Position numbers and translations under genes: made by a program
The notes under the pieces: generated by a model
Told to the model about the DNA's origin: nothing
What the model saw: only the letters and a program-made list of their open reading frames with translations
The model's database searches: none
NCBI GenBank assembly: GCA_963666345.1
Contig: OY762721.1
Span: forward strand, 1,408,001 to 1,472,000
Reading direction: 5' to 3'
Source: Desulfatiglandales bacterium
GTDB taxonomy: Bacteria; Desulfobacterota; DSM-4660; Desulfatiglandales; Desulfatiglandaceae
Length of the DNA: 64,000 bases
In this document: positions 16,895 to 35,123 of the stretch, piece by piece
How the letters are laid out: every line of letters starts with the position of its first letter
Position numbering within the stretch: position 1 is the first letter of the stretch

Positions 16895-17515
16895 ATGAAA
16901 AAGCCATCCAAATTAAAATATCCAAATTTTGAAGCTAAGTATCCATGGTTGTCTATTCTCTTTAAAGCTTACTATAGGAATGATGTGGGCATATATAAAG
17001 AACTGAAGATATTTACCAAAGAGTCAAGACGAAAAATAGCCTGCAAAAAAGGCTGTTTTACTTGTTGTTTAAATCCTGTCGTTCCAATAACCCTGATAGA
17101 ATTAATGGGAATTTCATGGTATATATCAGAAATAATAGACGATTTTGCAATACGAGAACAACTTAAAGGTCAAATGTTGCAAAATAAAGAGACTCCTGTC
17201 TGTCCTTTTCTTATAAATAATGAATGTTCCATATACCCGATCAGGCCCATAGCCTGCAGAGAATTCTTTATGACTGGATTACCCTGTAGGCCAAATGAAG
17301 ACCCAATCGTTTCTAGGCCTAATGACATTTGGTTTCCGTCCAGGAATATTGCGAGGAAGACTGCAATGGAGCTTTTATCTTTTTACGACTTCCAAACTGA
17401 CACCGAAAAGCTTCGAGCATATGAAGCTGGATATATTTCTCAGAATTCAAGCGATATGCATTCAATTGATTGGTCTCAAATGATTTCAACTATGAATCTA
17501 TTTGAAACTGCATAA
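16895..17515 (+). CDS. YkgJ family cysteine-cluster protein (putative integron cassette)
   Basis: CKKGCFTCC and CPFL...CSIYPIRPIACR; AT-rich; stop codon lies within the attC R'' box. Confidence 0.85.
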   Translation: MKKPSKLKYPNFEAKYPWLSILFKAYYRNDVGIYKELKIFTKESRRKIACKKGCFTCCLNPVVPITLIELMGISWYISEIIDDFAIREQLKGQMLQNKETPVCPFLINNECSIYPIRPIACREFFMTGLPCRPNEDPIVSRPNDIWFPSRNIARKTAMELLSFYDFQTDTEKLRAYEAGYISQNSSDMHSIDWSQMISTMNLFETA

Positions 17516-17574
17516 CCACGCTCTTTCATCAGCGGATCGTAAGAAACCGCGCCTGCTGAAGAGCCACGTTGGCC
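17510..17574 (+). mobile_element. integron attC-like site
   Basis: GCATAAC...GCTCTT..CAGCGG...CCTGCTGAAGAGC...GTTGGCC: AAC/GTT ends with an internal imperfect palindrome, between two co-oriented ORFs. Confidence 0.7.
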
Positions 17575-17602
17575 TTGATCATAAGGATAAAGTAGAGAAA
17601 AC

Positions 17603-18682
17603 ATGTCGGGTCGCCCTGAACAAGCGAGACAAGGATCGATAGTCAAGCATCACCCTGACGGGTTCCCCTTGTTCTTTGACAAGAGGAAACCGCGTGTAGT
17701 CACAGCTGACCCTTGGGCATATCTTTCGCATTTGGCGGTCGGACGCTTGAGTGGTGACCAAAAGGGCGAAGCACTTGCCTTCATTGAGCAGGCTTTTGAT
17801 TTTTACGAGGCAGCACAGAATCCACAACTCGGTTCAAAACCCCTTCTTTACTACTATTCGTTTCTGAATCTTGCAAAAGCAGCGCTCCTTATTTCTGGGG
17901 TACAAATTCCACTCAACGCGACGCATGGAATAAGCGATCCTAGGGCCAACATTAGAGAACGACTCCGTTTCGAAGGGCAGAAAATCTCTATACCTATGCC
18001 CGCTAGAAACCATTCATCAATTTTTCCAGAGTTTTTATCAATGCTCGGAGCACCTCCTAGGACCGACAGAAGAATGCGAGTAATAGACATCATTGGTCTC
18101 CTGCCATGTATCCATCGCACCTACTGCACCGTAATAAGGCAGAAGCCTATCTTTCTGCCTGTCTCTCGCTTCGAGGTTCGTCACTCAGGGGGTGAAGTAT
18201 GGGTGAGAATGGTGGTTAAGCGCCAAGATGACGACGTTCAGAAGGTTTTGCCTATAATTCGAAAGCGGCAGACTTGGCTACGAGTGTTGCACCAGGTAGA
18301 ATCAAAGTGTGAGTCGGAATTGTGGTTTGAGACTACGCCGGCACCCGGTGCGCGAAGGGGATTAGACAATGGTATCAAGGAACATGCACTTGCGCTCCGT
18401 AATCTCGGGCCTGCCTGTATCCTGACGGCACGAGGCTATCGCTTCTATCTACCAGAACTCACACCCGCGAACAGACTCCCGTGTCTCGCGGCATCATACG
18501 CGAGTATGTTCTATCTCGGTTCGATCACTCGATACAAACCACACTATTTTGATAAAATAGCTGTTGGGAAATACCAATGGATAGTAGAAGAGCTCATGGC
18601 GACACAGCCTCTGCAATTTTTATACAAGCTTGCGAGCTGGCTTGCAGGCGTCGATGTCGTGCGACCCTACGCCAGCGTATAA
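17603..18682 (+). CDS. YaaC family protein (putative integron cassette)
   Basis: KPLLYYYSFLNLAKA, HGI and MFYLGSITRYKP motifs typical of YaaC-like proteins. Confidence 0.75.
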   Translation: MSGRPEQARQGSIVKHHPDGFPLFFDKRKPRVVTADPWAYLSHLAVGRLSGDQKGEALAFIEQAFDFYEAAQNPQLGSKPLLYYYSFLNLAKAALLISGVQIPLNATHGISDPRANIRERLRFEGQKISIPMPARNHSSIFPEFLSMLGAPPRTDRRMRVIDIIGLLPCIHRTYCTVIRQKPIFLPVSRFEVRHSGGEVWVRMVVKRQDDDVQKVLPIIRKRQTWLRVLHQVESKCESELWFETTPAPGARRGLDNGIKEHALALRNLGPACILTARGYRFYLPELTPANRLPCLAASYASMFYLGSITRYKPHYFDKIAVGKYQWIVEELMATQPLQFLYKLASWLAGVDVVRPYASV

Positions 18683-18695
18683 GAAGAGCATGGGC

Positions 18696-18763
18696 GCCTA
18701 CACTCTAAATCAGGGGCAAAGCGGCGCGGTTTTAAGCGACGGTATGTAGATCTGTTGGTTAGC
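18696..18763 (+). mobile_element. degenerate attC-like site
   Basis: Directly after the YaaC stop, ends in GTTAGC and contains GCGGCGCGGTTTT; pairing is poor. Confidence 0.3.
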
Positions 18764-18840
18764 AGCGCCATATCAAGAAGATAATATCAGGCATCTTTTA
18801 CTTTCATAAACCACAATGCGATATGAAGCTGTTTAACTAA

Positions 18841-18957
18841 ACAATATCCAAGCCCTTACCTTAACAAAAAATCCTGAAAAATTTTTACACGGATAAGTGA
18901 TAGTAGGGGGGGTAACTCAAGTCTCCGGGTTTTCTTTCCTTTTTCTGCACTCTGGAC
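18841..18957 (+). repeat. G-run motif, copy 1 of 3
   Basis: AAAAATCCTGAAAAATTTT.ACACGGATAAGT...G7..AACTCAAGTCTCCGG, shared with 29550-29645 and 20474-20568. Confidence 0.85.
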
Positions 18958-19080
18958 TTTCTTTAGATTTTCTCTACCTAATTGCAGGCTCATTGGCCAT
19001 GTATTTCAATTGAGGAAGACGGGGCTTGAACCTTTGGGCTAAACTGCTGTTGCGACTGGCAATGAGATAGAAGCTTCAAC

Positions 19081-20044
19081 TCAATTGGTTCTATCCGTGG
19101 CAATCTCCAGTGCCCTTTTGTTCAGGCTTGCACCCTCTCCGTACCATAAGCTACTGAGCGTGTTATCCTGGCACTCACCCCGGAAGTAGTTCAAATACTC
19201 ATTTACGGCATTGTAGGCTCCCCAGTAGGTCTTTCCTGCCATTCGGCTGCCCCGGCCATATTCAAAAAGTCTGACCACTCTGGGCACAATTTTTTCCTGT
19301 TTCTGCTGTGCCGGGGTTCTGTCCCTTTCCTTGAGACAAAAGACCAGCCGTATATATTTGACAAGTTCTGCGCTGTTTACCTGTTTGGATGCAAGACGTT
19401 TGTATCGATCCACTGTTGCAACAAATTCTTGCTGGGCAAGATCGATCGTATCCCGTATGTCTTCAAGGGTTTCAAGCACGCCTTTGATATGACTTTGCTC
19501 GGAGAAGCTTGCTTGCTTTAGACTCATGGGCAAGACAGAGGGTGTTGTTGCATACCACACGGATCGGGCGTAAATCCTACTGCGCACGGCAAGACTTCCG
19601 TCATGGGAGCTGGAAAGAAGGATATAGTGCTCCAGGATGTCTTCTTTGCCCCACGCTCATGGGATCCCGTTTGATCTTGGCAAGGACCCAGATCCTTGAG
19701 CCTCCTTTGAGGCTGCCAGCCGTCTCGATAGTCGCCTCGCCACTCTCAAGGAAAGGCTGAAACCATTTAAAAGCATCAATGTTTTGAAGGGGCTCATAGT
19801 CTCTTCCCACTATCCCGAGCACTTTATTGTCGCTGGTCCTGCAGGTAACATAACTGCCTATGATGCACAGATGTTCATTTTTCTGACCCTCGGTGAATAG
19901 ATGGCGAAGCTCCACGTCCCAGTTAAGCCCGGCAGCAACTATTGCTTCTTCAATGCTCAATTTGCTTCCTTCCGGTACTGGGACCCCTAAGCCATGCCAG
20001 GGAGTTTTTCCGACATACATCATGCTTTCCACATCATTTGCCAT
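19081..20044 (-). pseudogene. DUF932/DUF945 phage-plasmid protein, frameshifted
   Basis: MANDVESMMYVGKTPWHGLG, ETAGSLKGG and TYWGAYNAVNEY. The middle motif SSHDGSLAVRVGFTPIRVVCNNTL can only be read through several single-base indels at about 19500-19650. Confidence 0.85.
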
Positions 20045-20072
20045 GACTGCCTCCTTTCAAAAATTGAAGATC

Positions 20073-20366
20073 TTAAGATCTGGGAGAGACCTCCTTTCTT
20101 ATTTTTTCACCTGCCGCCTTTTCAGCAAGACCGAGGTCATGGTCCATTTGAAGGCCTAGCCAGTATTCAGGTTTATTATTGAAATACCTGGCGAGCCTCA
20201 GGGCCGTATCCGCGGTTATCCTTCTTTTGCAAAGGACGATCTCATTAATACGCCTAGGCGGGACATGAAGGGCGATAGCCAGCTGATTCTGGTTGAGATT
20301 AAGCGGTTTAATGAATTTTTCCAGCAAAATCTTTCCTGGGTGCACAGCTGTATTTTCCTGATTCAT
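20073..20366 (-). CDS. higA: HigA family antitoxin (Xre HTH), no cognate toxin adjacent
   Basis: HPGKILLE...RINEIVLCKRRITADTALRLARYF...YWLGLQ. Confidence 0.9.
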   Translation of the reverse strand: MNQENTAVHPGKILLEKFIKPLNLNQNQLAIALHVPPRRINEIVLCKRRITADTALRLARYFNNKPEYWLGLQMDHDLGLAEKAAGEKIRKEVSPRS

Positions 20367-20403
20367 GGATTATTCTCCTTAAAAGTCTAATATGGTCTTA
20401 TAT

Positions 20404-20422
20404 TATAACGCATAACGTTATA
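20404..20422. promoter_or_regulatory. palindromic operator upstream of higA
   Basis: TATAACG-cataa-CGTTATA, 38 bp upstream of the ATG. Confidence 0.65.
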
Positions 20423-20473
20423 CATCAAGTTATTTTTACATGCAACTACATACTTTAAAAACTCAGCAGGGCC

Positions 20474-20568
20474 AAAAATATTGAAAAAAATATACGGCCA
20501 TAAATGATAGGTGGGGGGGGGGGGGGGGGGACTCAAGTCGGCGGGTTTTCCTTTTCCCGCACTCTGTA
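20474..20568 (+). repeat. G-run motif, copy 2 of 3 (G18 tract at 20513-20530)
   Basis: TGAAAAAAATATACGG..ATAAATGATAG-G18-ACTCAAGTCGGCGGGTTTTCCTTTTCCCGCACTCTG. Confidence 0.75.
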
Positions 20569-20724
20569 CATCTATTACCTGCTACCTGACCAGCAATGGA
20601 TTGGTTTTCGTGTGCTATCACAATATTTCATTCATATTGAATATTTCAATTTCATTATAAATATTATATTGCTAACTTATTTAAATAATTTTTTATTTTA
20701 CAAGTATTAAAAGATACTTTTATT

Positions 20725-20753
20725 TTGACACATTTTCTTTTATTAACTATTAT
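20725..20753 (+). promoter_or_regulatory. sigma70-like promoter upstream of the radical SAM cluster
   Basis: TTGACA-17 bp-TATTAT, in AT-rich DNA so chance matches are possible. Confidence 0.5.
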
Positions 20754-21146
20754 ATTTAAAATAATCTTTAGCTCAATCTAAACATAGATAAGCAAATCAT
20801 CCCTTTTGATCGATACAGAATCTCAAAAGTTTCAAAATACCATCTCTATCGCTACAATTTTCGATTGTTATGCTTAATGCAAGCTATACGTAATGAGGTC
20901 TGATTTTTCTTTAATTTAAGTTGTTTAACAGCTATATTCCTGTTCCAAATTATCGATATAGTCAAGCCTTTTTTAAAGTAAAACGACTTTTTATTTTCAC
21001 GTAACAACCGATCCATGGCCTTGAAGTAGCCTTTTTGAACTTTTAAATTACAAACCTTGCAGTACCGTTGGGTCGTTTTAATCTGGGGATGCCCGAGCAG
21101 ATCCTAGATTAAGCATGGGCTTGGACAACCTCGTGAGGTTCCAGTC

Positions 21147-21755
21147 TTGATATCAGTGGCCGTAATCGTTGGGGGCAAGAATCCCGGGCACAAGAGGGAG
21201 AGCATTGTTCCCTACTTCCGAGAGTTACTGTCAACAATCCCTTCGAGCGTTGAAGAACTCCATCTCCATGACGTCAGTTGTGGAACGCTTGACAGATTCT
21301 GTGTGTTGATTGTGGCAACAAGCCTTGAGTCTGCAGGGGAGCAAGTATTGTGCTCACTTCAGGCATTCTCAGGGAAGCCCCGCAGTGTTTCTGTTTATCT
21401 GCACGAGGCATCCATCTATGATGAGAGGGCTAACCGGTTCTTTCTGGACTTTTTAGGAGTGCGATTTGGGTCCCACCAACCCTATGGGATAATGGAGGTC
21501 CGTACCTGCTCACATCACTTTACAAGGGGGGTCGCCAAAGTGTTTACTACGACTGACGAGTCCTACGCCTACCGTTCCGTTAGCGGAGACTTTCCACGGG
21601 ATTCTTTCCTTTTCAGCAGCGAAGGTATCCCACTAGGTTTTGCCACCCTTATTCCGTCGTCAGAGGGGCGTGTGGTTTACATTGCGTTAGGTCATGATAC
21701 AGCATCAATTCAGAACAATGGCTTCAGGACGATCCTTCGCAACGTAGTTACCTGA
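21147..21755 (+). CDS. ThuA-like domain protein (class I glutamine amidotransferase-like fold)
   Basis: FLGVRFGSH, HHFTRGV, TDESY, GRVVYIALGHD. Confidence 0.7.
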   Translation: MISVAVIVGGKNPGHKRESIVPYFRELLSTIPSSVEELHLHDVSCGTLDRFCVLIVATSLESAGEQVLCSLQAFSGKPRSVSVYLHEASIYDERANRFFLDFLGVRFGSHQPYGIMEVRTCSHHFTRGVAKVFTTTDESYAYRSVSGDFPRDSFLFSSEGIPLGFATLIPSSEGRVVYIALGHDTASIQNNGFRTILRNVVT

Positions 21756-22192
21756 GCCTTTGCGGTCACTGGGTGAGGCGAGGGTCCTTTCCTTTGGGGA
21801 TTCACAAAGTGACAGGTATTCTGTATCGCCAAATCCCCGTTTGACTCAGGAAGGCCAACAATGCATAGACGCTGGCGATCCTCAGCCTGCATTGATGGAT
21901 GTCGAAGGGCCAGTACCCGGGTAAGGTCTAGAGTTCAGTTGATATGGTCAGCTTATGCGAACGCCTACAGGCGTCGGGAGTACTTATGAGCCCAAACGTG
22001 CAGGAAGGCTGACCATAATCGTAGGTGCCCATGTTGCGTGTATCCCACCGTGCCCGCAGAGAAATGACTCACCATCGTCCGAGCCCTGTGTGGCCGGGGC
22101 CGTAATGCTACGCAAGTGCTTACCCGTAGCGACGTATTTTATTATATGATGCATTTCCGCGGATTTTTTTCAAAAAAATAGGGGGTAGGCAC

Positions 22193-23272
22193 ATGATGCT
22201 TGGTAGAAACCGAAAGACGGACTGCACGTTCGATAATCCGGCGCCTCCTCGGTTGCTACGGATTGAGATCATAAACCAATGCAACTACGATTGCACGTTT
22301 TGCTGTTGGCAGGGTGACCCAGCTGATTTCCCACTCTATAGACGTCCCATTCTCTTCTTTCAGATTTTTGTAAAGGCACTGGTTAGGTCTGGATGTCGGC
22401 GGGCACATTTGACAGGAGGTGAACCACTTCTTGTACCCCGCGCCAAGCTGTGCGAAATCGTGTTTGCCCTGACATCACCAAGAGTCCTAGGCCATTTTTT
22501 CATCACCACTAATGCGAGTCTCCTTGACGACCATTTATGCTATGAGCTCTACCGCGCTGGGTTGCGCGACATAGTGATTTCGATAGGTGGCCACACGAAT
22601 AGCGCGTACCGTGCTTATGCCCGACCGGCGAGTATGGATGTAGATCTCGACTTTGTGTTAGGCCGTGTAGAGCAAGCAGTGCGTTGTGGTCTGTCGGTAA
22701 GGGTGGATGTCCCGCTCTCGACCGACGGAATCCACGACTTTGAGGCACTGAAGCAACTTATTGCAAGGGTTCAAGAAATCGGTGTCCGCGATGTTACCTA
22801 TTTCAGATTGCATAAAACTAAGGAGAATAAAGATGATTATAAACGGCTTACAGATTCCGAAGTGCTTGAACGTGTCACGGCAGGTTTTATGAAAGATTCT
22901 GCGTGGAAAGTAGTTGCTGATGGAGGGCGAACGTTTTTTTGTGACGGGCATGTGAGAAATTTTTTCTACAACGGGCATGTGAAAATACCGTTTCCGTGCA
23001 GAATCGAGCCAAAAACGATCAATTGCAAAAAACGTATGAAGGCTTGCGGTGACTACTGCCAAGGAACCTATGCTGTGTACCTACTCGGCAGAGGCGGTGG
23101 TGCAGTTGTTAGGGCGTGCCACCATGAGTTCCCCAGACGAGACAACGAGTTTCCAATTGATGAATCTCTCTTTGAACGCGGAGATGTCGCCGGTGTTAGT
23201 AAGGTACTGCGACGGGCATGGCAGTGGTCGGCGGGTGAGGAATCGCTCAAGAACAGCTCGCCAACAATGTGA
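22193..23272 (+). CDS. radical SAM enzyme, MoaA-like N-terminus
   Basis: LRIEIINQCNYDCTFC (CX3CX2C), LTGGEPL, ITTNASLL; C-terminal Cys cluster (C...CGDYC...RAC). Confidence 0.88.
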   Translation: MMLGRNRKTDCTFDNPAPPRLLRIEIINQCNYDCTFCCWQGDPADFPLYRRPILFFQIFVKALVRSGCRRAHLTGGEPLLVPRAKLCEIVFALTSPRVLGHFFITTNASLLDDHLCYELYRAGLRDIVISIGGHTNSAYRAYARPASMDVDLDFVLGRVEQAVRCGLSVRVDVPLSTDGIHDFEALKQLIARVQEIGVRDVTYFRLHKTKENKDDYKRLTDSEVLERVTAGFMKDSAWKVVADGGRTFFCDGHVRNFFYNGHVKIPFPCRIEPKTINCKKRMKACGDYCQGTYAVYLLGRGGGAVVRACHHEFPRRDNEFPIDESLFERGDVAGVSKVLRRAWQWSAGEESLKNSSPTM

Positions 23273-23529
23273 GTGAGCCGTAGTGAAACATATACGCCTA
23301 ATAGTAGGACGAAACGACTACGGTTATGACCCATTAATAGTCTGTTGCAGATCAAAAATCTATTCTCGAATGCAGCTTTCGTGGTCGAGCCACTTCAGTT
23401 CCACGATGTCTGCCACGGAGAGCTTGATCTCTCCAGCGTCTTGCATGCGCACAGGGATAGGATCTTCCGACTTCAAAGTCTCGGCATCGATCAACCATCA
23501 GCTAATATCCTCTTATTGGATCTTGAGAT

Positions 23530-24996
23530 ATGGAACGACATGCGAATAAGCACTTTGTAGGCACTTCCTGTTTTGGAATACGGGGGCAGGAGGCAGTCCT
23601 GGCGGGGCCGTGCAGTAATCTATCGCAATACCCATACGACGCTCTTTGGGTCATATGCCCAGAAGATACAGTCGATCTCACTAGGCAACGTCTAAATGAT
23701 GCGCGAGGCGAACTCCTCCCTCGCACTTTGCATGTCCAAGTTGTTCCGCAACGACAGCTACTTGAAGGTTATTTTACCGGTGGGTCATTCGGATGCATCC
23801 CACAAGCGGTGTCGCAGTGCTTGTGGGAATATAAGGCCATTGCAGGAAAGCCCCGCCTTGAGGAGGCGCGTATAGCCTTGATTTGCTCAGGGGGGCAGGG
23901 AACGCGTGCGACACCTCTCAGTTGGCTGGGATGTGGCAACAAGAGCTTGATGCCGAGCATTAATGGGAAGCCGCTGCTATACCAGATTCTGAAGCAGATT
24001 ATTCAGATTGACACCGCACCAGGTGTATGGGCTTTCGGGTGCGACGTGCTCCAGAGCATAAATGGGGGACTGCAATACAACGCAAACGAGATTTCGGTGT
24101 TTGTCAACGAAGTCGGTATTGGTTATTCTGATACCGAAAATTATCTCTGTCTGTCAGTGGGTGATTCAGGGCGGCTTGTGAGGGCTACGTACCAACCTTC
24201 GCGTTCTGAGTTGAATTATTTCGGCAGGATAGCGGTGCCATTGATGGTAACGTTTTTCCCTCCTTCGTGTCTTTGGACGTTAGCCCACGCGTTCTTTGCA
24301 GAGAGTTCACCTGGCGGGCTTCCCTTGGTTCAAAGGTACACGATTGACATGGTCACATGGTTTCAGGCTTTAACTATGGGAAGGGATGCCTTTGCCGAGA
24401 AGTACACATTAACCTTTGGGATTCGAGATGCAGAGGCGATCTGGGATGCATTCCAGGCCCTTCTGCAGAGCGCAGAGATTAAATTTCCGTGTTGCTCACA
24501 AGGTGATCCAAGCGATCTGCTAGTCGATGTGGGTGATATCCGACGCTATGTGCGGACAGCTCTCGAAACGGCACGGAATCCTGCCCTAAGAGAGCTACTA
24601 GGCTTGGAGAGCATTACTGCCAAGGGAGGCACCATCGTAAAAGGATTGGGCAACTGCTTAGAGCTTGGTGATGGTGTGCGGATTAGGGGATGCCTTGTAG
24701 CAGGTGGAGACGTAAGGATCGAGCGAGGAGAGATATGCGACGGTATTGTCATAAACCATAAAGCACATGAATTGGAAATGGCGGGGCCGTGTTTAGTCGC
24801 CGGTGGCACTAGTCAGTGTCTCATCGTGCCAAAGGGTGATGTCACCGTATTCACTCCCATTGAAGGGGAGATGTTCAGAATCACAGCTAACATGGCTTTG
24901 TTGGAGGCTAGTTGCCAAGCGGTCTGTTGCAAAACTGGTAAAGAGCGCAGTTTTTCGGCTCTATGGCCTTGCCCTTCAGGGAGGTGGTTGGTGTGA
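23530..24996 (+). CDS. divergent sugar-phosphate nucleotidyltransferase-like protein
   Basis: LICSGGQGTRATPL...NKSLMP..GKPLL signature, DVG motif, C-terminal beta-helix-like region; start uncertain. Confidence 0.65.
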   Translation: MERHANKHFVGTSCFGIRGQEAVLAGPCSNLSQYPYDALWVICPEDTVDLTRQRLNDARGELLPRTLHVQVVPQRQLLEGYFTGGSFGCIPQAVSQCLWEYKAIAGKPRLEEARIALICSGGQGTRATPLSWLGCGNKSLMPSINGKPLLYQILKQIIQIDTAPGVWAFGCDVLQSINGGLQYNANEISVFVNEVGIGYSDTENYLCLSVGDSGRLVRATYQPSRSELNYFGRIAVPLMVTFFPPSCLWTLAHAFFAESSPGGLPLVQRYTIDMVTWFQALTMGRDAFAEKYTLTFGIRDAEAIWDAFQALLQSAEIKFPCCSQGDPSDLLVDVGDIRRYVRTALETARNPALRELLGLESITAKGGTIVKGLGNCLELGDGVRIRGCLVAGGDVRIERGEICDGIVINHKAHELEMAGPCLVAGGTSQCLIVPKGDVTVFTPIEGEMFRITANMALLEASCQAVCCKTGKERSFSALWPCPSGRWLV

Positions 24997-26180
24997 CTCG
25001 GTTATCTCCAAGAAACGGTGATAGATATCATGGGAACCGGCATGGCGACCATGCCGTTCTGTTGGCCAATCGGTTTGCTGCAAGGCTGTTGGCCATAGCT
25101 GACCGAGCGGCTTTTGATGCGGCTGTGGACGAATTGGTTAGAGAAATGGATGGGCTTAGTTTTGCAGAGCATGACAGAGCTGTGAACGTTCTTTGGAATG
25201 GGCTCGGACAAAGGGCATCTACATTAGAACTCCCTGTCAACTCTGACCGACCGACTGCCCTCTTCTTCTGTACGAGTCGGACTACGGATCTGGACATCAG
25301 GGTGAAGGAAGAGGTCATTACCCAGGTTGAGCCCGTCAAATGTTTCGTCGGCGGGAAGGCATGCAATGCGTTCCGCATGTACCGAAATATCGGTGGAGAG
25401 GCGGTGTTATTGACTTACCCTGATCTAGCGTTTGATGCACGTAAGGTCGTTCTCCTAGATCATGCAAAGAAAAGAGTCCTATATGCTGACCCTCTGCCAT
25501 CGACGGACAGCGACCCGTGGGACGTGTTAAACACTGTGTCGGCTTGCCTTAATCGCATGCCGAGAGGGAGCCTTATTGTTATTGGGGGCTCTTTTCATCC
25601 TGCCCTTGCAGCTGAACACCTTGATTACTTCTTTGATTCTGCTCGTTCTGATGAGTTCGGACTCGTTGTTGATTGCAGCGCCAAATTGACCGAGGTACAG
25701 GTTATCAAAATACTCGAAGCTAAACCACTTGTCCTCCAGAGCAACGAAGCCGAGTTCAGAATGCTGTGTCGGTATGTAAACATAGACGGGATGAGAGAGC
25801 GCCAGAGCTTGAATCATTTCCCGGACATATCACAGGTGGTACGTATAGCGCAGGAACTGATCAAAAGCTTTGGCCTTTCGGCGATTGCTGTTACCCTGCG
25901 TCAGAGAGGCGCTGTATTGTGTACAAGGAACGAGATCCACTACGGCCATAGTCGTTGGCCTATTGCCTCTGTCGCTGGAGGACTTGGATCTGGCGATTCA
26001 TTCTGTGGGGCCATGGCTTACGCTCTCTCACAAGAGCCCGCAGTGAACAGGGAGATCAATTGGCGTCGAGTTCTAAATTTCTCTCTTGCTGCTGCGACGG
26101 CCAAGGTAAAGCTGTTGGGGACCCAGATGCCATCACGCGATTTAGTGTTGCAAGAAGAGGTAATCATGTGCAGCCAATAG
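24963..26180 (+). CDS. PfkB family carbohydrate kinase (divergent)
   Basis: GGKACNA, VVDCS, SNEAE, VTLRQRGA, GSGDSFCG; true start may be the GTG near 24993. Confidence 0.75.
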   Translation: MALPFREVVGVTRLSPRNGDRYHGNRHGDHAVLLANRFAARLLAIADRAAFDAAVDELVREMDGLSFAEHDRAVNVLWNGLGQRASTLELPVNSDRPTALFFCTSRTTDLDIRVKEEVITQVEPVKCFVGGKACNAFRMYRNIGGEAVLLTYPDLAFDARKVVLLDHAKKRVLYADPLPSTDSDPWDVLNTVSACLNRMPRGSLIVIGGSFHPALAAEHLDYFFDSARSDEFGLVVDCSAKLTEVQVIKILEAKPLVLQSNEAEFRMLCRYVNIDGMRERQSLNHFPDISQVVRIAQELIKSFGLSAIAVTLRQRGAVLCTRNEIHYGHSRWPIASVAGGLGSGDSFCGAMAYALSQEPAVNREINWRRVLNFSLAAATAKVKLLGTQMPSRDLVLQEEVIMCSQ

Positions 26181-26296
26181 CCCCGACTATCATGCACTAT
26201 CGAGAGAGCGCGCCCACACCGGGATCTCTCTGGACAGACTGCTAACAGGAAAACTATAAGTGAATTGGATATGCAAAAGACCGGTGGACCATTACA

Positions 26297-27499
26297 TTGA
26301 CGAAGGAAACGGCTGTGGCATCCAACGCGAACATCGGCTTGAGAATTGGCGGTACAAACTTGCAGGTAGCCGTACTATATGGCGATGAAGTACTTCGGGT
26401 GGTTTCCGATGAGATCAGGTTTCGCGATGTCTGCGAAGCCCGAGCTGGAGGAAGCTATGTCCGGAGTGATATGTATGAGTTGGTGGCAAATCAGGTGCTT
26501 GATTGTATTACCCGGATAGGTCTGAGTGTGCCCCAGTTTATAAAGGACAACGGGGGATTTCGGATACTTGTGTCCTTTGCAGGGCCAATGTCCCTAGATG
26601 GACATCTAGTTTTCCGGCCGAAAAGCATTCCTTGTATGCATACATGGTTCCCTCTAGCCGAGGAGCTTTCGGAGCATCTTTGCTGTGCATTAAACTGCAG
26701 CCGTGAGACTGCTAGTGTACAGACTTGGATGGACGGAACGACATCGGTCTTCGCGGAGACCTCACCTAATGGAACCTGTCCTGGAGAAAGGGATGCGATG
26801 GTAGTGATATCGGGCACCGGTGTGGGGGCTGGTTTTATGAAGGACGGGAAGAGCTTCGTCGGTCAGGGAATCAACGGAATGCTTGGAGAAATTGGCTACT
26901 TCCTGATGACGACAAGTAATGGCCAGTATAAGTATATGGCCTATGAGACACATGGCGACATCGGGAGGTTCATTTCTGGCAAACCCCTTAATGTATTCAG
27001 ACACAGATTCTGTGTTGAAGGAGTTCTCAAGTCATTCATCGAGTATACGGAACGACGGGGCGATGGACGGCCGATTGCGGGGCTCAAGGGCTGGGCATGC
27101 CGTGGGCGGATGTCGCATGCCACCCTAGTCCGTTTGTCGCAAGAACTCATCGACCGGATCGCTAATGGCGACAGAATCGCTCTGAGTTTCCTAGATGACT
27201 TAGCGGACGGATTCTGCAGCGGAATCGCTTCATTCGTTGTTCATCCAAGACACATTGGAGAAAAATTCACACGGAACATCGTCCTGGTCGGCAGTCTGAG
27301 CTGTTTTTTGGGGGTATTCTCCTCGCCTCTTGAAAGTAGAATGAGGGAAGCGCTTTACAGAAAGTTGTGCGAGGCGTGCGTTTCGCGACGAATTGCTTCT
27401 GAAATTTGCGAGGGATTCCGGTTCTCAAAGATGAGCTCTACCACTCGGGAGTTCATCGGTTTGGCGAGGCTCGGGAGGATGAAATGCACAGCCGTGTAG
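26297..27499 (+). CDS. ROK family sugar kinase-like protein (divergent)
   Basis: GLRIGGTN, VSFAGP, GTGVGAG, GEIGY. Confidence 0.75.
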   Translation: MTKETAVASNANIGLRIGGTNLQVAVLYGDEVLRVVSDEIRFRDVCEARAGGSYVRSDMYELVANQVLDCITRIGLSVPQFIKDNGGFRILVSFAGPMSLDGHLVFRPKSIPCMHTWFPLAEELSEHLCCALNCSRETASVQTWMDGTTSVFAETSPNGTCPGERDAMVVISGTGVGAGFMKDGKSFVGQGINGMLGEIGYFLMTTSNGQYKYMAYETHGDIGRFISGKPLNVFRHRFCVEGVLKSFIEYTERRGDGRPIAGLKGWACRGRMSHATLVRLSQELIDRIANGDRIALSFLDDLADGFCSGIASFVVHPRHIGEKFTRNIVLVGSLSCFLGVFSSPLESRMREALYRKLCEACVSRRIASEICEGFRFSKMSSTTREFIGLARLGRMKCTAV

Positions 27500-27642
27500 C
27501 TCAGGGCACATGCAGAGTGGTTCCCAGGTGTCCGGGAGTCAGGTTGAATGAAGCTCGCTAGGGACGCAGTTTTGGCCCATGGCATCTTGCAACAGAATTT
27601 TATCCATGAGGTGATTCCATTAAGTAGGGGGTCCTTAAAGAT

Positions 27643-29040
27643 ATGGATATTCAACTCGTACTTCCAAAACATGATGCTGGCGAAGGTGTGACAACGCAGG
27701 CATGTTTCCCTCCTCTGGGGATTCTGTCCATCGCCTCCCACTTGCGTGCCCTTTATCCGACGTTTGACATTGAGGTGATTGATTGTGAGCTTGTGAATGG
27801 GGATATAGAAAATCTTATCGGGGCAGACATTGTGGGTATTCACAGCTCCTTTCTGACCCACGAGCATGCAATCGATATCGCTAAACATGCCAAGCAACGC
27901 GGGGCCACCGTTGTGTTAGGTGGACCACACCCTTCGGCCGTCCCTAACGCTATTCTCCGCAATAGGCGTTTTGTAGATGCTATAGTTGTTGGTGATGGGG
28001 AGTTGGCTTTCGCCGATCTAGCGGCCGGAGTTGACTATCTAAAAATTCCGAATCTCGTCTTCAGAGAAGGAGAGAATATTGTCCAAAATCCGGTGCTCGA
28101 ACTTTCTGTTGACGAGTGGGTACCAATTGACTTTTCTTTTGTGGATCTTACCGCATATTGGCGGAACTGGGAGCAGAATTTTCCCGAGCAGATCTACTTT
28201 AAGCCACTTCCTTTTTTCTCCCAGCGAGGCTGTCGATGGCGTTCTTCAGTAGGAGCTTGTGTGTTTTGCTCTATCTATGATGTTACTGTGAGAGGCGTGA
28301 CTCCCAGTTCGTTTTGGGCGGAAGTCCAAAGGCTAAACACGGAATGGGGGAGTGATTATGCCCGGGACAACTCCGACGATCGAGCTGCTGACCGCAAATG
28401 GTTATCGGAAGCATGCTCTATGCGTCCTAGAGGCCTAGATGTCGGACTCCGGTTTTATTGTCGTGCGAGTTCGATAGACGCAGAGACGACCCAGATGCTT
28501 CGTGAGATGAACACCGTTGACGTCTTCGTGGGTTTCGAGTCGGGGGATACTCGCATACTCAGACAAGCAAACAAGGGGGGATCAAGGGAGGGTAACATTC
28601 GGGCGGCCAATTTGCTCCACGAAAACGGGATAAACGTTCTGGGCAGCTTCATCCTCGGTTTGCCGGGAGAAGACGATCAAAGCATACAAGCCACGGTTGA
28701 CCTAATCAGTGAAGTCAGGGCTCGGGCAGGCGTCAGGAGACCTAGTTGCACTATCATGATTCCCTTCCCAGGCTCACCAGCATTCGGGATGATGCTGACT
28801 CAACCCGATCTGAGAGAGAAGTACCAGAACAGAGATCTGATCAACTGTGAGGATCTCCGGCGAGACTGGGTGTGCAGGTTCACTCAGACTGACTATGAAG
28901 TGCTACTCAGCGTGGCTGACGATCTTTTCTGCTCGGGCATGGTAGGCTCAAGAATTGGGTTTGGCCCAGGCGTCAACAGAACAGAACCCGAGGACATAGA
29001 GGCTAATCCTTCCGGTTTAGGACCGGACGCTGATGGTTAA
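27643..29040 (+). CDS. B12-binding domain radical SAM enzyme (class B methyltransferase-like)
   Basis: PPLGILSIAS, VVLGGPHPS, GDGE, RGC-X8-CVFC, GFESG, FILGLPGE. Confidence 0.9.
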   Translation: MDIQLVLPKHDAGEGVTTQACFPPLGILSIASHLRALYPTFDIEVIDCELVNGDIENLIGADIVGIHSSFLTHEHAIDIAKHAKQRGATVVLGGPHPSAVPNAILRNRRFVDAIVVGDGELAFADLAAGVDYLKIPNLVFREGENIVQNPVLELSVDEWVPIDFSFVDLTAYWRNWEQNFPEQIYFKPLPFFSQRGCRWRSSVGACVFCSIYDVTVRGVTPSSFWAEVQRLNTEWGSDYARDNSDDRAADRKWLSEACSMRPRGLDVGLRFYCRASSIDAETTQMLREMNTVDVFVGFESGDTRILRQANKGGSREGNIRAANLLHENGINVLGSFILGLPGEDDQSIQATVDLISEVRARAGVRRPSCTIMIPFPGSPAFGMMLTQPDLREKYQNRDLINCEDLRRDWVCRFTQTDYEVLLSVADDLFCSGMVGSRIGFGPGVNRTEPEDIEANPSGLGPDADG

Positions 29041-29549
29041 GCTCTTGGTGCCGTACGCACTATCTACCCAAATGGTAGTTGTCGGGAATGATTCCGCAGA
29101 CATGGTTTGTTTGTGCCTGTTTTCTAGCCTTGGGTATGGTATCGACTCAGTTACGCCTCAACTGGAACCAAGGAACGCACCGGAAACATCTAATTTGGTT
29201 AGTTCCAAAATTATCGGCAAAATTATAAAACCATAAGCATAAACCGACTAACGTTGTAATTTATTAAAGTGATTTATTAAATAGTTTTATAATTTCTATT
29301 TTTTTGATAGCCTTAATAACAATCAAATTTGGTATTTCAAAGTTAATATTTCGATGCGTATCCCTGAGGGTAGCCAAAAGCAATAAATTATCCTATCCAC
29401 AAATGCTGAGCGGCTTGAAAAATCCAACAATACCAAACCTAATCATAACAGGTACGAGTTCATTTTATGACCTATTAACGGGGTAACCCTAGAGGTTGCT
29501 GCTGGATATCACAGCTGTGAACTATCTGTGGTAAAAAAGAAATGCCGCA

Positions 29550-29645
29550 ACAATATCCATACCTTTCTTGTAACGAAAAATCCTGAAAAATTTTCACACG
29601 GATAAGTAATTGAGGGGGGGCCGGAACTCAAGTCTCCGGTTTTTT
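29550..29645 (+). repeat. G-run motif, copy 3 of 3
   Basis: ACAATATCCA...AAAAATCCTGAAAAATTTTCACACGGATAAGT...G7..AACTCAAGTCTCCGG. Confidence 0.85.
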
Positions 29646-30543
29646 ATTTTTGGCATTTTCCTGCAGGCCTTGCATTTGTCTTCGCACCAAGTGCCGGCCT
29701 TAATCATGATTTGCTTCCGGCTCCAGGTTGGATATCAAAACCGGTACTGATCCCGTACCCTCTTCCGAATTGATATCCGCCGTAACCGCCCCTCACCGCC
29801 TGTAATCGGAGGCGAGAAAGACCTTAAAAGTTTACATAATGGTCTTTATCATGCATTTGCGGATCTCGACATAACCATGATCAGCCGATATTTTGAGCAT
29901 CCTGGAGGTGCCCCAGCCCCGAAAACTGTTTTTTTGGCGCTGGCGTCCAAAACCCGTTTATCGGGATTTCCGGCCGTAACCGCCTATAAACGGCCGAGAT
30001 CCGGATCACAGCAAGAGACCGAATCAGATAAATGCAGGAAGGCCTCAAAAATGGCCGAGATCATCGATATGAGCAAGATCGTGACGCTTCATACACAACC
30101 TTGAACAAATCCCCACACAGCCCCTTTTTCAACCGACACAGCCTTTAGGCACACCTGACCCAGCGTCTCCAAAAGAATAGAACCTCGGTAAAAGATGCAG
30201 TTTTTTCGTGCCTCGGTTCCGAGATCCGAGGGTGAGCTTGTATTTTGACCGCTCATCCTTGGTGTTCCACCCTCTTTATACCGAATTTCAACTGAATTTT
30301 GTGCAAAATCCATCAAAAAGCACCGACAAATTAATAATATCAGGCAGTTATCAAAAGCGCCTCATCCGCCGCCCGCGCCCCCCCGCGTATTTCAAGAGAT
30401 CCTGGTCATTTGATATCGATCCTTAATGCCTTTTGACGCGCCGAGATCCAGGAATTCCGCATTCTCCACACGCATATCATCATTTATCGCATTAACACAG
30501 CCCGACACAGCTCCGGCCGCCTGGCCAGGTGCCCCCTTTCTTT

Positions 30544-30775
30544 AGTGACAAAGTGACACTTTTTTTAAAAACTCTTTTATCTTTTCTCATCCTCTTCTAT
30601 TTTCACCTCTTTTACTGTATGCGCGATGGATATATACATATAAAAAAACCTTTGAGAAAAAGTGTCACTTTTGTCACTTTGCCATGTATCATATTAACTT
30701 TCCTCAGTTTAAAAAGTGACACTTCACCAAACCGTAGAGCCTTGAAACTGTCACTTAATGAGAAGTATTGTCACT
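30544..30775. repeat. AGTGACA/TGTCACT iteron array, putative replication origin of the satellite-like element
   Basis: Seven copies in both orientations around an AT-rich core (gatatatacatat), just downstream of the primase/helicase gene. Confidence 0.7.
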
Positions 30776-30872
30776 CCTCTGTTCTTTTTTTGGGAAATGC
30801 AAAGGGGGAGGCGGGGCAGACGAAAACACAACACTCCCTTTCATTACCTTTTTTAAAGAATAGGCCGTTTTT

Positions 30873-32717
30873 TTATTCGTCTGGATATACCTTCAGGTTG
30901 ATACCTTTAAAAATCCGTTTTCCATTGGTAGTTCTCACCCGGCCAACCGCAGGAAACGACCTCATGATCTGATTATAGAACCTGTTACGGCTCATAATGC
31001 TATACTGACCCTCTTTGCACCAGTCCTGATATGACTTCCACATCTCTTTAGGAGCGACTTGCTCATCCTCCCCTAGATCGCAGCACTCCTGAATAAACTG
31101 CTGGAAAGGGTACATGGCCAGGATCAATCTCTTTTTAGCCTTGTTCACCTCTTCCAGCTCCTCAAAGCCGTCATTTTCCAGCAGCTTCATCAGCCCGTCC
31201 AGGGCCCACATAAAAACGCCGTCAAGCTCATTTTCTATGATCTTCTTTGCCAGGGTATGGTCCTGCTCATCCTCTGCGAACTGTCTCAGAAACTCTATGA
31301 CAATAAGCCTGCGGGCAAAACCGTGGCTTTTGTCCAGCACCACAGGCGGCTCGTTCAAGGAGAAAATGTTTTTGGCGAAATTCCGGAACATATAGGCGTC
31401 ACCGTACTTGCGCTCAGCACTCACCAGATCGCCGCTTACAAGCTTTTTAAAGGTAGAGGTACCCATGGCTTCCCTAGTCGTCTCAGCTGCCAGGTTGGCA
31501 AATTTATTCTCCATGGCATAGGTCCTGAATCTCTCTCCAAGCTCGTGCATACTAAGAGCACTCACGTTCTCCTCCCCCAGCATCCCAGTCAAAACATCGA
31601 TCACGACTGATTTACCATTAGCGCCGCCTCCTATCAGCCAGAGCGCCTTTGCGTACCTGCAGTCGGTCAAAAGGCAATACCCGAAAAACTGCTGAAGCAC
31701 ATCGATTTTTCCTTTTTCGTTTCTGCCTGGGAATACCTCATCAAGAAATTTCAGCCATCTGTCGAGCTTTTTGAAATACTTCACTCCGAAGATACATGGT
31801 ATTTGAGCCTTTGCTCCATATTTAGCGTCATGAGAGATGAGCGCATTTTTGCGATCCTCGGCATCCACATTCACCATGCCATTTTTGCAACATATCAGCT
31901 CAGGGTTACTGCCCCAGTCGTCAACGTGCCTTTCAACCAAGCCCTTCAGAGTGCTTATTGATGTCACTATCCAGCTCGGGGTCAGGTAATCGCCCAAGGC
32001 ATGGACTATTATCGAGGCTATCTGATCCTCGCTGATCTCCTGCCAGATCCCCTTGGGCGTATACGCCCAAAAAACCCCGTGTGTGTGTACCAAGTCGCCT
32101 ATCAGGCCCACGATGTATTTCGCCATGAGCGAGGCAAGGAATTTTCTTTTTGATTTAATCCGGATGAAGAATTCTGCTGGATTTATCTCATCAGGCGGCG
32201 GGAGTTTGTCGCTGAACAGTGCGGTCAAAGCCGGGCTCATATTGTACTCACCCACACTCTCTATAAGACCGGTGGATACGTTCTCCACGGCTGGCGGCTT
32301 CCACTCAGGATCGTAGCCAGAACAAAACGGAGCAAGCGAATCATCTCCCGAGATCACCACCCGGGCATCTTTCCAGGTGCGGCCGGCAGCTTTGCATGTG
32401 TCGTGAAAGCATTGATAGGTCAGGTAAGGCTGGCTGGAAGACTGGACGATTGAGGCATCATTAGGCCCATGAGAGTGATCAAATACGCACTCTTTGAGAC
32501 AATATAGAGTCAACTCGCCTTGCGGCTTCACAAAATGTTCGCGTCCATAGTGATTTAGATAAGCACCCACATCCAGGGTGCCCAGGTTGCCCCGGTTCAT
32601 CGGCTTGGCTTTCCCGGTGTTCTTTTTTTGGGAAGTCGAGGAAGGGGCGGGGAGCTGGGCCTCGCCTTCTGCCGCCTCATCAGCCAGCTTTGATGGAATT
32701 TTCTTTTTATCAGGCAT
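30873..32717 (-). CDS. phage/plasmid primase-helicase, P4/D5 family
   Basis: LICCKNGMV (D5_N), QQFFGYCL, GGGANGKS Walker A, FKKLVSGD...ERKY, RRLIVIEF (SF3 helicase), C-terminal wHTH. Confidence 0.92.
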   Translation of the reverse strand: MPDKKKIPSKLADEAAEGEAQLPAPSSTSQKKNTGKAKPMNRGNLGTLDVGAYLNHYGREHFVKPQGELTLYCLKECVFDHSHGPNDASIVQSSSQPYLTYQCFHDTCKAAGRTWKDARVVISGDDSLAPFCSGYDPEWKPPAVENVSTGLIESVGEYNMSPALTALFSDKLPPPDEINPAEFFIRIKSKRKFLASLMAKYIVGLIGDLVHTHGVFWAYTPKGIWQEISEDQIASIIVHALGDYLTPSWIVTSISTLKGLVERHVDDWGSNPELICCKNGMVNVDAEDRKNALISHDAKYGAKAQIPCIFGVKYFKKLDRWLKFLDEVFPGRNEKGKIDVLQQFFGYCLLTDCRYAKALWLIGGGANGKSVVIDVLTGMLGEENVSALSMHELGERFRTYAMENKFANLAAETTREAMGTSTFKKLVSGDLVSAERKYGDAYMFRNFAKNIFSLNEPPVVLDKSHGFARRLIVIEFLRQFAEDEQDHTLAKKIIENELDGVFMWALDGLMKLLENDGFEELEEVNKAKKRLILAMYPFQQFIQECCDLGEDEQVAPKEMWKSYQDWCKEGQYSIMSRNRFYNQIMRSFPAVGRVRTTNGKRIFKGINLKVYPDE

Positions 32718-32737
32718 AATTCACCAGCTTGAACCTT

Positions 32738-32917
32738 TTACTCAGGCCTGATTTTATGCCGGTCCATGAAGCGAATGACGTCGTCGACATCGTATCTGAC
32801 GGCTTTACCCGCTTTACAATATGGGATTCCGACCCCTTTAAATCGGTCATTCCTTAATTTTGAGCAGGAAAACCCCGTAATTGCAGCTACTTGTTTTTCG
32901 TTAATGTACTTTTTCAT
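32738..32917 (-). CDS. excisionase/AlpA-like HTH protein (59 aa, below the ORF-track cutoff)
   Basis: MKKYINEKQVAAITGFSCSKLRNDRFKGVGIPYCKAGKAVRYDVDDVIRFMDRHKIRPE*. Confidence 0.85.
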   Translation of the reverse strand: MKKYINEKQVAAITGFSCSKLRNDRFKGVGIPYCKAGKAVRYDVDDVIRFMDRHKIRPE

Positions 32918-32973
32918 TCTTCTAGCTCCGTGGAGTATTATTATTTACTCGCAGTATAACTAGCTGATTTTAA

Positions 32974-33030
32974 ATATAAAACACCTAAATTAGCAAAAAA
33001 CCGTTTTTTGCTAATTTAGGTGTTTTATAT
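32974..33030. repeat. perfect palindrome, 28-bp arms with 1-nt spacer
   Basis: ATATAAAACACCTAAATTAGCAAAAAAC-C-GTTTTTTGCTAATTTAGGTGTTTTATAT. Confidence 0.95.
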
Positions 33031-35114: not shown

Positions 35115-35123
35115 AGTAATTTC

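Follow-up and report, generated by a model that had tools for sequence, protein, structure and literature searches.

Six genes in the window analysed here, a stretch of 64,000 nucleotides from a Desulfatiglandales bacterium (assembly GCA_963666345.1, contig OY762721.1), appear to form a horizontally acquired, operon-like cassette (positions 21147-29040) that makes a tailored nucleotide-activated sugar or a derived nucleoside-type small molecule. We give this reading a probability of roughly 55%. It builds on the protein families and folds, the intact core motifs, a conserved two-gene core and the setting in a mobile island, all of which were observed; from these we infer the substrate, the order of the steps, the product and the use of the cassette. 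The window corresponds to bases 1408001-1472000 of a single-contig genome of 4.16 Mb with a GC content of 0.48.

In the pathway that we envisage, a ROK-like kinase and a PfkB kinase of the 1-PFK type would phosphorylate a free sugar or pseudosugar, probably twice, to give a bisphosphate or an anomeric phosphate. A pyrophosphorylase of the FKP type would couple the sugar phosphate to a nucleoside monophosphate, yielding a nucleoside diphosphate (NDP) sugar. A MoaA/BlsE/AbmM-like radical S-adenosylmethionine (SAM) enzyme would abstract hydrogen from the sugar or ribose ring and its ThuA-like partner would process the resulting keto or radical-derived intermediate. Finally, a class-B B12-radical SAM enzyme would modify the product further, most likely by C-methylation or rearrangement.

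The interval contains six open reading frames (ORFs), all called on the + strand and all open. Five of the six encoded proteins scored above the curated Pfam cut-off (Pfam and NCBIfam scores are quoted in bits, each beside its curated cut-off), and the sixth, encoded at 23530-24996, matched no family at 1e-3. Neither Pfam nor NCBIfam detected a glycosyltransferase, transporter or regulator domain in any of the six. The GC content is 0.49-0.52 within the block, 0.317 in the spacer upstream (20550-21146) and 0.407 in the spacer downstream (29041-29900), and copies of a G-run repeat bound the cassette on both sides (20447-20549 and 29549-29644). An earlier note on this DNA had described six co-oriented genes of these families, AT-rich flanks, bounding G-run repeats and the lack of a glycosyltransferase, transporter or regulator, and on each of these points the present results agree with it. 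The best sigma-70-like promoter match (TTGACA-17-TATTAT, 11/12; 20725-20753, +) lies in the AT-rich upstream spacer and is a candidate cassette promoter; a terminator-like hairpin followed by a T-run (29095-29115, +) begins 55 nt past the last stop codon. Both are consensus matches only.

The codon adaptation index (CAI) places the six genes in the lowest 0.5-5% of the genome's 1310 long ORFs, an atypical codon usage that is consistent with a foreign origin of the cassette. Short contigs identical to parts of it (for example 27367-27808, with zero differences) were found in three marine-sediment metagenome runs from three studies; the cassette is therefore real in nature and not an assembly artefact. 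Genomes of E. coli gave no DNA match to the locus, and the nearest relatives of the cassette proteins are just 30-47% identical in protein sequence. Searches of the intergenic gaps were negative: Rfam, at E up to 1 over 16000-35500, returned nothing credible, blastx against the neighbours at related loci gave matches at chance level only, and blastn against the genome gave nothing significant beyond the repeat copy and, for a segment of the sixth gap, three weak (~72%) matches. That segment (29380-29514) is ~72-75% similar to genome sites near 1174713, 1594076 and 2981903, and constitutes a small dispersed repeat.

The conserved core of the cassette consists of the first two genes. The second of these (22193-23272, +) encodes a 359-aa radical SAM enzyme (PF04055, 47.8 versus 29.5) of a rare MoaA/BlsE/AbmM-like family. 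The protein carries the motif CNYDCTFC (CX3CX2C), a TGGEPL motif and four C-terminal cysteines (C278/C285/C289/C309) that likely bind an auxiliary cluster. Searching 5.8 billion protein clusters yielded 14 relatives at 30-45% identity (E <= 2e-39), after which E falls to 1.5e-9; among 3684 candidates, 80 proteins came out under 1e-3. Most of the source-named matches in this next tier are annotated as MoaA or cyclic pyranopterin phosphate synthase, and the tier carries the Mob_synth_C domain (PF06463) that is absent from the window enzyme and its 14 relatives. The family conserves CNYxCxFC, TGGEPL and a C-terminal CGxYCQGxYAAYL...RACH segment with four cysteines. Of the 15 members, 13 have their N-terminus and all of these keep CNYDCTFC; the 29 invariant columns of the 15-sequence alignment are all retained in the window enzyme. 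A 27-nt in-frame tandem duplication, 78% identical, lies inside the gene (22929-22982) and adds the residues VRNFFYNGH, which are missing from all 14 relatives.

Comparison with characterised enzymes gave a graded picture. NCBIfam scores stayed far below the cut-offs for MoaA, the top match (TIGR02666, 68.2 versus 284.05), BlsE (39 versus 400) and viperin (NF038283, 30.8 versus 180). In a profile search of the PDB, MoaA matched over the first 215 positions (1.4e-28). With a model of mean predicted local distance difference test (pLDDT) score 85.6 as query, Foldseek returned MoaA at template modelling (TM) scores of 0.65-0.72 over ~350 columns, followed by BlsE, SkfB, AbmM and several viperins; the PDB profile search agrees, with MoaA, BlsE, AbmM and viperins as the nearest solved relatives by sequence too. 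The substrate of MoaA is GTP, that of BlsE cytosylglucuronate, that of AbmM a cytidine nucleotide (PMC12691670) and that of the viperins CTP. The possibility that the enzyme is the housekeeping MoaA was dropped, the genome's true MoaA (363 bits) being located elsewhere; CobS is likewise encoded in the genome.

The ThuA-like protein (202 aa; 21147-21755, +; PF06283, 41.9 versus 33.4) is translated from a TTG codon preceded by GAGG and is the genome's sole ThuA match. Its nearest solved structure is 4jqs, an uncharacterised protein (4.3e-7). An alignment of four sequences has 40 invariant columns, including GGKNPGH, TSLE, HEA and GVRF..H, all of them kept in the window protein. Conserved His, Glu and Asp residues suggest a metal site.

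A pattern scan of the genomes of 185,579 species gave eight pattern matches, of which three were confirmed as radical SAM loci: one each in metagenome-assembled genomes (MAGs) from Desulfobacteraceae, Methanosarcinales and Spirochaetota. In all three, a ThuA-like gene (35-36% identity) lies just downstream of the radical SAM gene, directly in two and past one HAD gene in the third. Since the pair recurs in genomes of Desulfobacteraceae, Methanosarcinales and Spirochaetota, the two-gene core must be under selection across domains of life. In the archaeal locus, the ThuA-like gene is fused to an extra SPASM radical SAM domain. The pair-bearing loci also encode a fusion of CofD with an NTP-transferase, HAD phosphatases, a xylose-isomerase-like TIM barrel and more radical SAM enzymes, as well as a 1247-aa protein in which NUDIX and ROK-like domains are weakly indicated; the surroundings of the pair vary, yet keep to one chemical area. 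The Spirochaetota locus carries CobT, CobC, CobS and CobU on the opposite strand (3467-6668 of that locus), just upstream of the radical SAM/HAD/ThuA operon. A link of the pair to the cobamide lower-ligand pathway was considered and dropped: the cob genes are on the other strand, occur at one of the three loci and may be a coincidence. A complex prediction for the radical SAM enzyme and the ThuA-like protein scored 0.00, which has no bearing either way, and metagenome contigs supplied a single 1046-nt fragment of a relative of the radical SAM enzyme, devoid of context.

The third gene (23530-24996, +) encodes a 488-aa protein whose model, Foldseek matches and ESM Atlas neighbours indicate a sugar-1-phosphate nucleotidyltransferase of the type found in the N-terminal (GDP-fucose-pyrophosphorylase) part of FKP, with a C-terminal beta-helix. 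Its sequence contains SGGQGTRATPLS...GNKSLMP as the presumptive loop. By profile the protein is nearly invisible: beside the lack of a Pfam family, PF00483 (NTP_transferase) reached 13.4 bits versus a cut-off of 21.2, sub-threshold and over residues 116-159 only, and PF07959 went unreported even at E up to 5. Of 8000 candidates scored in a word-indexed search of the 5.8 billion protein clusters, the sole match was the protein itself. When 1.84 billion representatives were searched in full with HMMER, 11 other relatives emerged, the best at 1.2e-19. Ten of these are 1206-3402 aa long, the matching domain taking up at most ~400 aa; the remaining one has 287 aa. Pfam scans of seven of the relatives called NTP_transferase in the matching region of two. 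Five of the seven jointly carry adenylate kinase, cytidylate kinase, APH, PGK, PGM, PGI, GNAT, HEAT and radical SAM domains, and in the other two Pfam finds nothing. The giant proteins, in which the nucleotidyltransferase domain is sometimes present twice, represent an unexplained class of multi-enzyme fusions.

Structure was more informative. In the ESM Atlas, 28 of the 30 nearest clusters bear PF07959, the fucose pyrophosphorylase family, which we take as a lead. An AlphaFold model from a 12-row alignment (pLDDT 74.6, predicted TM score 0.79) matched full-length FKP best (9iit_A, 7.4e-11), followed by 9iis, the GDP-fucose pyrophosphorylase part (3.1e-10, probability 1.00), with GDP-mannose and ADP-glucose pyrophosphorylases in the next tier. 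In the model, as in the solved structures of this type, the nucleotidyltransferase fold gives way to a left-handed beta-helix. The TM-scores to FKP are modest (0.45-0.46) and membership by profile hidden Markov model (HMM) failed; we therefore claim the fold and the likely type of reaction for this protein and withhold family membership. To judge by its predicted fold, the protein is likely a sugar-1-phosphate nucleotidyltransferase of the FKP/GDP-fucose-pyrophosphorylase type. The earlier note had called the gene "NTP-transferase-like"; no Pfam family backs that name, yet the fold (Foldseek, 7e-11) and the Atlas clusters (28/30 PF07959) do. The gene overlaps the following PfkB gene by 34 nt, which suggests coupled translation, and the order pyrophosphorylase to kinase is that of the FKP domains.

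The kinase encoded by that overlapping gene (405 aa; 24963-26180, +; PF00294, 48.4 versus 25.8) is of the 1-phosphofructokinase/hexose-kinase type and has an N-terminal extension of ~95 aa. TIGR03168 and TIGR03828 are its top NCBIfam matches, yet lie below their cut-offs (59.9 versus 216.4), and in the PDB it matched PfkB-2 and ribokinase weakly. Proteins of the PfkB family have a GG..N signature near the start of the fold and G-x-G-D near its end; the translation shows VGGKACN and GSGDSF. The next gene (26297-27499, +) starts at a TTG codon and encodes a 400-aa, very divergent ROK-like (ASKHA) protein, a putative sugar kinase (PF00480, 30.7 versus 22.9). Among its 30 nearest Atlas clusters 21 are ROK, including one that bears the name 2-epi-5-epi-valiolone 7-kinase (score 0.94); the best PDB match is the GlcNAc kinase 2hoe (0.0039). 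No relatives at 1e-12 were found in 400 other genomes of the phylum.

Two sugar-kinase families next to a member of the ThuA family, which is named for trehalose utilisation, might alternatively denote a catabolic or salvage route for an environmental sugar, with both kinases feeding metabolism, and a GH15 hydrolase gene near the pair in one relative would fit. We judge such a route very unlikely. The cassette encodes no transporter, hydrolase, isomerase or aldolase, and a pyrophosphorylase accompanied by two radical SAM enzymes, one of them B12-dependent, bears biosynthetic hallmarks foreign to known sugar catabolism.

The last gene (27643-29040, +) encodes a class-B (cobalamin-binding) radical SAM enzyme of 465 aa, with PF02310 (51.1 versus 32.1) and PF04055 (59.8 versus 29.5). 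Its 38 relatives are 29-41% identical (E < 1e-54). A CX8CX2C motif (C197/C206/C209) is invariant in all 35 aligned sequences and the canonical CX3CX2C is not among the invariant columns; the alignment has 22 such columns, and the window enzyme retains them all. NCBIfam placed the protein under every cut-off (HpnJ, 90 versus 578; QCMT, 80 versus 360). The nearest solved structure was 9ccb (3.7e-23), with AprD4 and OxsB next; 9ccb is the glutamine C-methyltransferase QCMT, according to the available part of PMC12931638. In a sample of 401 genomes of the phylum, 248 matched the B12-enzyme profile at 1e-40. Beyond the window, only two genomes gave scores like those of the true family (4e-186 and 2e-149), the next standing at 1e-67.

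One of these two relatives adjoins a cytidylyltransferase gene in a glycan-sugar cluster (locus L033) that also encodes GT2 enzymes, a sulfotransferase, a sugar C-methyltransferase, an RmlC-like epimerase, a dehydratase and an NTP-transferase. The other adjoins a SPASM radical SAM enzyme and ABC-transporter genes, and the SPASM/B12-radical SAM partnership was also encountered as a gene fusion (protein P0004). Neither context repeats the gene set of the window. The glycan cluster lends some colour to a different end use, in which the cassette would supply a rare methylated or deoxygenated NDP-sugar to a transferase encoded elsewhere, for lipopolysaccharide (LPS), capsule, S-layer or protein. 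A pyrophosphorylase fold shared with the GDP-fucose and GDP-mannose enzymes points the same way, as do GT1 and GH15 genes near the pair in the Spirochaetota locus. Set against these likenesses, no glycosyltransferase, flippase or polymerase is encoded in the cassette or within 16000-35500 (the rest of the genome was not searched for transferases), and a mobile cassette that relies on a chromosomal transferase would be the less parsimonious arrangement. We hold this donor role to be unlikely.

Several findings weigh against a single pathway to a tailored sugar-nucleotide or nucleoside. The substrate is wholly inferred, and the six genes include no exporter, resistance gene, regulator or glycosyltransferase that would mark an end use. 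The full six-gene set was found together nowhere else. At the three pair-bearing loci no homologues of the PfkB, ROK, nucleotidyltransferase or B12-enzyme genes were present, and the order of the core pair is inverted in the window, where the ThuA-like gene comes first. The nucleotidyltransferase had no homologue in any of 60 related genomes (nor, again, in the three with the pair). The SPASM radical SAM enzyme that is the usual partner of the B12 family elsewhere is missing from the cassette. Two gaps interrupt the block: 437 nt of unrecognisable content between the ThuA-like and radical SAM genes, and 257 nt 3' of the latter. The ROK-like protein raises a doubt of its own. Usual ROK features are a D-x-G-G-T ATP motif and a zinc-binding Cys/His motif; here the first ATP motif reads LRIGGT, with Arg replacing Asp, and the translation contains no CxCGxxGC. 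Because LRIGGT departs from D-x-G-G-T, the protein may not be active as a kinase.

The earlier note had called the cluster an orphan, and had named a lack of synteny elsewhere as a ground for giving up its proposal. Orphan status holds for the six-gene set and for the nucleotidyltransferase; relatives do exist for the radical SAM/ThuA pair and for the B12 enzyme, to which the term does not apply. Correspondingly, the whole set is not syntenic elsewhere and the two-gene core is. The chemistry put forward there, sugar phosphorylation, nucleotidylation and radical tailoring to an unusual sugar-nucleotide or nucleoside, was supported and has been sharpened by the fold and family evidence.

Since the set was found nowhere else, the pair loci lack the other genes and the SPASM partner is missing, the cassette may be a mosaic of non-cooperating modules, and the repeats around it bear on this alternative. 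The upstream copy (~100 nt; 20447-20549, +; repeat families D1/D2) comprises a promoter-like TTGAAA-16-AATGAT (20481-20508), a run of 18 G and then ACTCAAGTC..CGGGTTTT. The downstream copy, likewise ~100 nt (29549-29644, +), is 82-86% identical to a third at 18840-18933. In these repeats the G-run is trailed by ACTCAAGTC..CGG.TTTT, and runs of eight G number 13 in the window versus 3.9 expected. Searching the genome with 29540-29650 recovered the query itself and the 18840-18933 copy and missed the more diverged one at 20447-20549; with only island copies found, the repeat was not seen outside the island. The three repeats separate gene cassettes. In one metagenome contig (depth 2, 41 nt on the shorter side), 18905 is linked straight to 20519 and the intervening 1613 nt are missing, a junction that recombination between repeat copies would yield.

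Accidental assembly or decay of cargo between such recombination-prone repeats, with no joint function of the six genes, would account for the uniqueness of the set, the two gaps, the two TTG starts (ThuA-like and ROK-like genes), the rearranged core pair, the 27-nt duplication in the radical SAM gene and the depth-2 contig that joins two of the repeats. We regard it as distinctly unlikely. The six frames are open and on the same strand, the GC content is even at 0.49-0.52, catalytic and cluster motifs are intact and the family-invariant residues are all kept; moreover, the nucleotidyltransferase and kinase genes overlap by 34 nt and all the families fit a single chemical theme.

The carrier of the cassette is plausibly a P4-like satellite, an identification suggested by its integrase, alpha-type primase and attachment-like repeat. 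On the - strand downstream of the cassette lie genes for a D5/P4-alpha-type primase-helicase (30873-32717; D5_N/DUF5906/Pox_D5, PHROG phrog_864 at 1.6e-83), a 230-aa product (33090-33782) and a tyrosine integrase assigned by Pfam (33718-34893). Between the primase gene and the 230-aa ORF, a perfect 28-nt palindrome with a 1-nt spacer (32974-33030) could be an origin or an operator. Past the integrase gene, blastn delineated a 65-nt repeat resembling a tRNA 3' end (35067-35131, +; partial tRNA match at 35044-35103, 25 bits). An exact inverted copy at 2216-2280 sits beside a second tyrosine integrase gene (2449-3612, +), the two integrases being 63% identical, and a third copy, of 49 nt, lies at genome position 1378636-1378684, ~29 kb upstream of the window. 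The two 65-nt copies bound the mobile region in which the cassette lies, and the arrangement points to a pair of islands that share one attachment sequence and are joined head to head or inverted. The satellite setting read by the earlier note thus stands as far as the integrase, the D5/P4-alpha-type primase and the tRNA-end repeat go, and is plausible as a whole.

In addition to the primase-helicase gene, the cassette half of the island contains a helix-turn-helix (HTH) gene, a split DUF932 gene and a CxxCxxCC/YaaC pair. The DUF932 gene is read as two ORFs (19601-20044 and 19081-19587, -), and related metagenome contigs show several 1-nt indels at 19492-19648, within it. Relatives of the primase were found in three of 150 genomes of the order (33-42% identity), with flanks that share no other island gene or repeat; PD-T4-6-like kinases and a B12-radical SAM gene near one of them appear to lie outside its island, because the integrase there directly adjoins the primase.

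The other half of the island holds a five-gene restriction-modification block of the MADS or Dnd/Ssp type (3804-16419, -), encoding DndH-like (1777 aa), specificity subunit/mad5, N6-methylase/mad2, mad7-like and SspF/DndF-like proteins. We considered and dropped the idea that the cassette makes a DNA hypermodification precursor for the Dnd/MADS-like system next to it: a DNA transferase is lacking, and the two are set apart by separate cassettes and by repeats. A second group of defence candidates is encoded just outside the island (35302-44893): an AAA_27 ATPase (1167 aa) with a metallophosphatase, a PDC-S01-like ATPase, a TatD-like DNase and a PDC-M19 A/B pair. Near the far end of the window (62256-63944, -) is a gene for a class I tRNA synthetase of the Glu/Gln type with a fused C-terminal tRNA_bind domain.

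Such neighbours invite the notion of chemical anti-phage defence, in which satellite-like cargo would produce a modified nucleotide or sugar-nucleotide antimetabolite that blocks phage replication, in the manner of viperin 3'-deoxy-3',4'-didehydronucleoside triphosphates (ddhNTPs) or nucleoside-analogue antibiotics. The DndH/SspF/MADS-like block, PDC-S01, PDC-M19 and the AAA_27/metallophosphatase pair in the same window make this a defence-rich mobile region, and the carrier has an integrase and a P4-alpha-type primase. Screening with the defence models of PADLOC-DB 2.0.0, which dates from 2023, gave the radical SAM enzyme a weak pVip match (1.3e-8, 32.6 bits) confined to the N-terminal radical SAM core, and returned nothing for the other five of the six proteins. 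The viperin model failed (30.8 versus 180 bits) and MoaA scores higher, even if viperins are among the structural neighbours of the enzyme. The low CAI of the genes (lowest 0.5-5%) is a further point in favour. Six biosynthetic genes with neither a sensor nor a gene for self-protection would make an unusual defence system. Kinases go with some viperins, to judge by the PADLOC model name "Viperins associated with kinases", and with small radical SAM nucleoside-antibiotic clusters such as thmA-C, as described in the available part of PMC12691670.

The related loci do not strengthen the case. Pfam annotation revealed no defence system at the three pair-bearing loci (PADLOC was not run on those), where the neighbours are cobamide loop genes, GT1 and GH15 at one, archaeal pilus genes, gyrB and one MNT-like nucleotidyltransferase at another, and unannotated ORFs. 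Viral contigs held no relatives of the PfkB, ROK-like or ThuA-like proteins, and their matches to the radical SAM enzyme were weak and outside the family. The defence role advanced in the earlier note was thus not borne out beyond the location, and we rate it as rather unlikely. A more specific version, a satellite-borne defence of a new type and independent of viperin, strikes us as unlikely: there, the two kinases and the FKP-like pyrophosphorylase, the radical SAM/ThuA couple and the B12 enzyme would make an antimetabolite, methylated or rearranged, to poison the synthesis of phage nucleic acids or glycans.

Should the proposed pathway to a tailored sugar-nucleotide or nucleoside be correct, it would reveal a new radical SAM family with an obligate ThuA-like partner, a pairing that has no known function. 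It would also provide a stand-alone form of a nucleotidyltransferase domain otherwise almost confined to giant multi-enzyme proteins, and a compact route to a modified sugar-nucleotide. Small-molecule defence is almost unexplored in anaerobes, and the setting in a mobile island among defence genes makes the cassette a candidate for it. Were the defence role to be disproved, specialists would still take an interest in how the radical SAM/ThuA pair and the CX8CX2C B12 enzyme work.

Neither PADLOC (the weak pVip match aside) nor the literature searched (titles and the beginnings of abstracts, with few subscription journals) yielded a described pathway or defence system that has this gene set, and the earlier note had recognised no such pathway either; parts of the cassette nonetheless resemble known systems. 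The closest parallel for the nucleotidyltransferase is FKP, the bifunctional L-fucokinase/GDP-fucose pyrophosphorylase of Bacteroides (9iit, 9iis), whose pyrophosphorylase part is the best match of the 488-aa model; as in FKP, the kinase follows directly, its gene lying 3' and overlapping in the order of the FKP domains. However, identity is 12-13%, PF07959 is undetected by HMM and the cassette kinase is encoded by a separate gene and belongs to PfkB, that of FKP being of the GHMP family; the cassette also adds a second kinase and two radical SAM enzymes. The formation of ADP-heptose (HldE, GmhB) and acarbose (AcbM, AcbU, AcbR) combines a PfkB- or ROK-type kinase with a nucleotidyltransferase to take a sugar or pseudosugar through a bisphosphate to an NDP-sugar. 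Here the likeness is in logic only: the cassette has no phosphatase, isomerase or cyclase, and NCBIfam matches are far under the cut-offs.

MoaA, the GTP 3',8-cyclase, is the best match of the radical SAM enzyme in both sequence and fold and has the CX3CX2C motif and C-terminal cysteines in common with it; the cassette enzyme differs in lacking Mob_synth_C and in its C-terminal cysteine spacing, CX6CX3C...C. The next-best structural neighbours are BlsE (blasticidin S), AbmM (albomycin) and the viperins, although the BlsE and viperin models failed. We know of no nucleoside radical SAM system or viperin with a ThuA-like partner, an FKP-type pyrophosphorylase or a B12-radical SAM enzyme. Small clusters in which a radical SAM enzyme and a kinase give a modified nucleoside, such as thmA-C for 4'-thiothymidine, are reported in the available part of PMC12691670. 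ThuA/ThuB shares the ThuA domain with the cassette, where the partner is a radical SAM enzyme rather than an NAD-dependent oxidoreductase, trehalose transport genes are lacking and the ThuA-like subfamily has motifs of its own, for example GGKNPGH. As in ThuA/ThuB, the ThuA-like protein has an oxidising enzyme for a partner, an analogy that brings keto-sugar chemistry to mind.

Class-B radical SAM enzymes methylate or rearrange sugars, nucleotides and phosphonates. QCMT, AprD4, OxsB, HpnJ and those of the Fom3/GenK type have the B12-binding and radical SAM domains in common with the cassette enzyme, whose family has CX8CX2C instead of CX3CX2C and which falls under every NCBIfam cut-off. Overall, the cassette is of a known kind in that it joins salvage-type sugar activation to radical SAM tailoring; what is new is the radical SAM/ThuA couple, the stand-alone nucleotidyltransferase and the combination as such.

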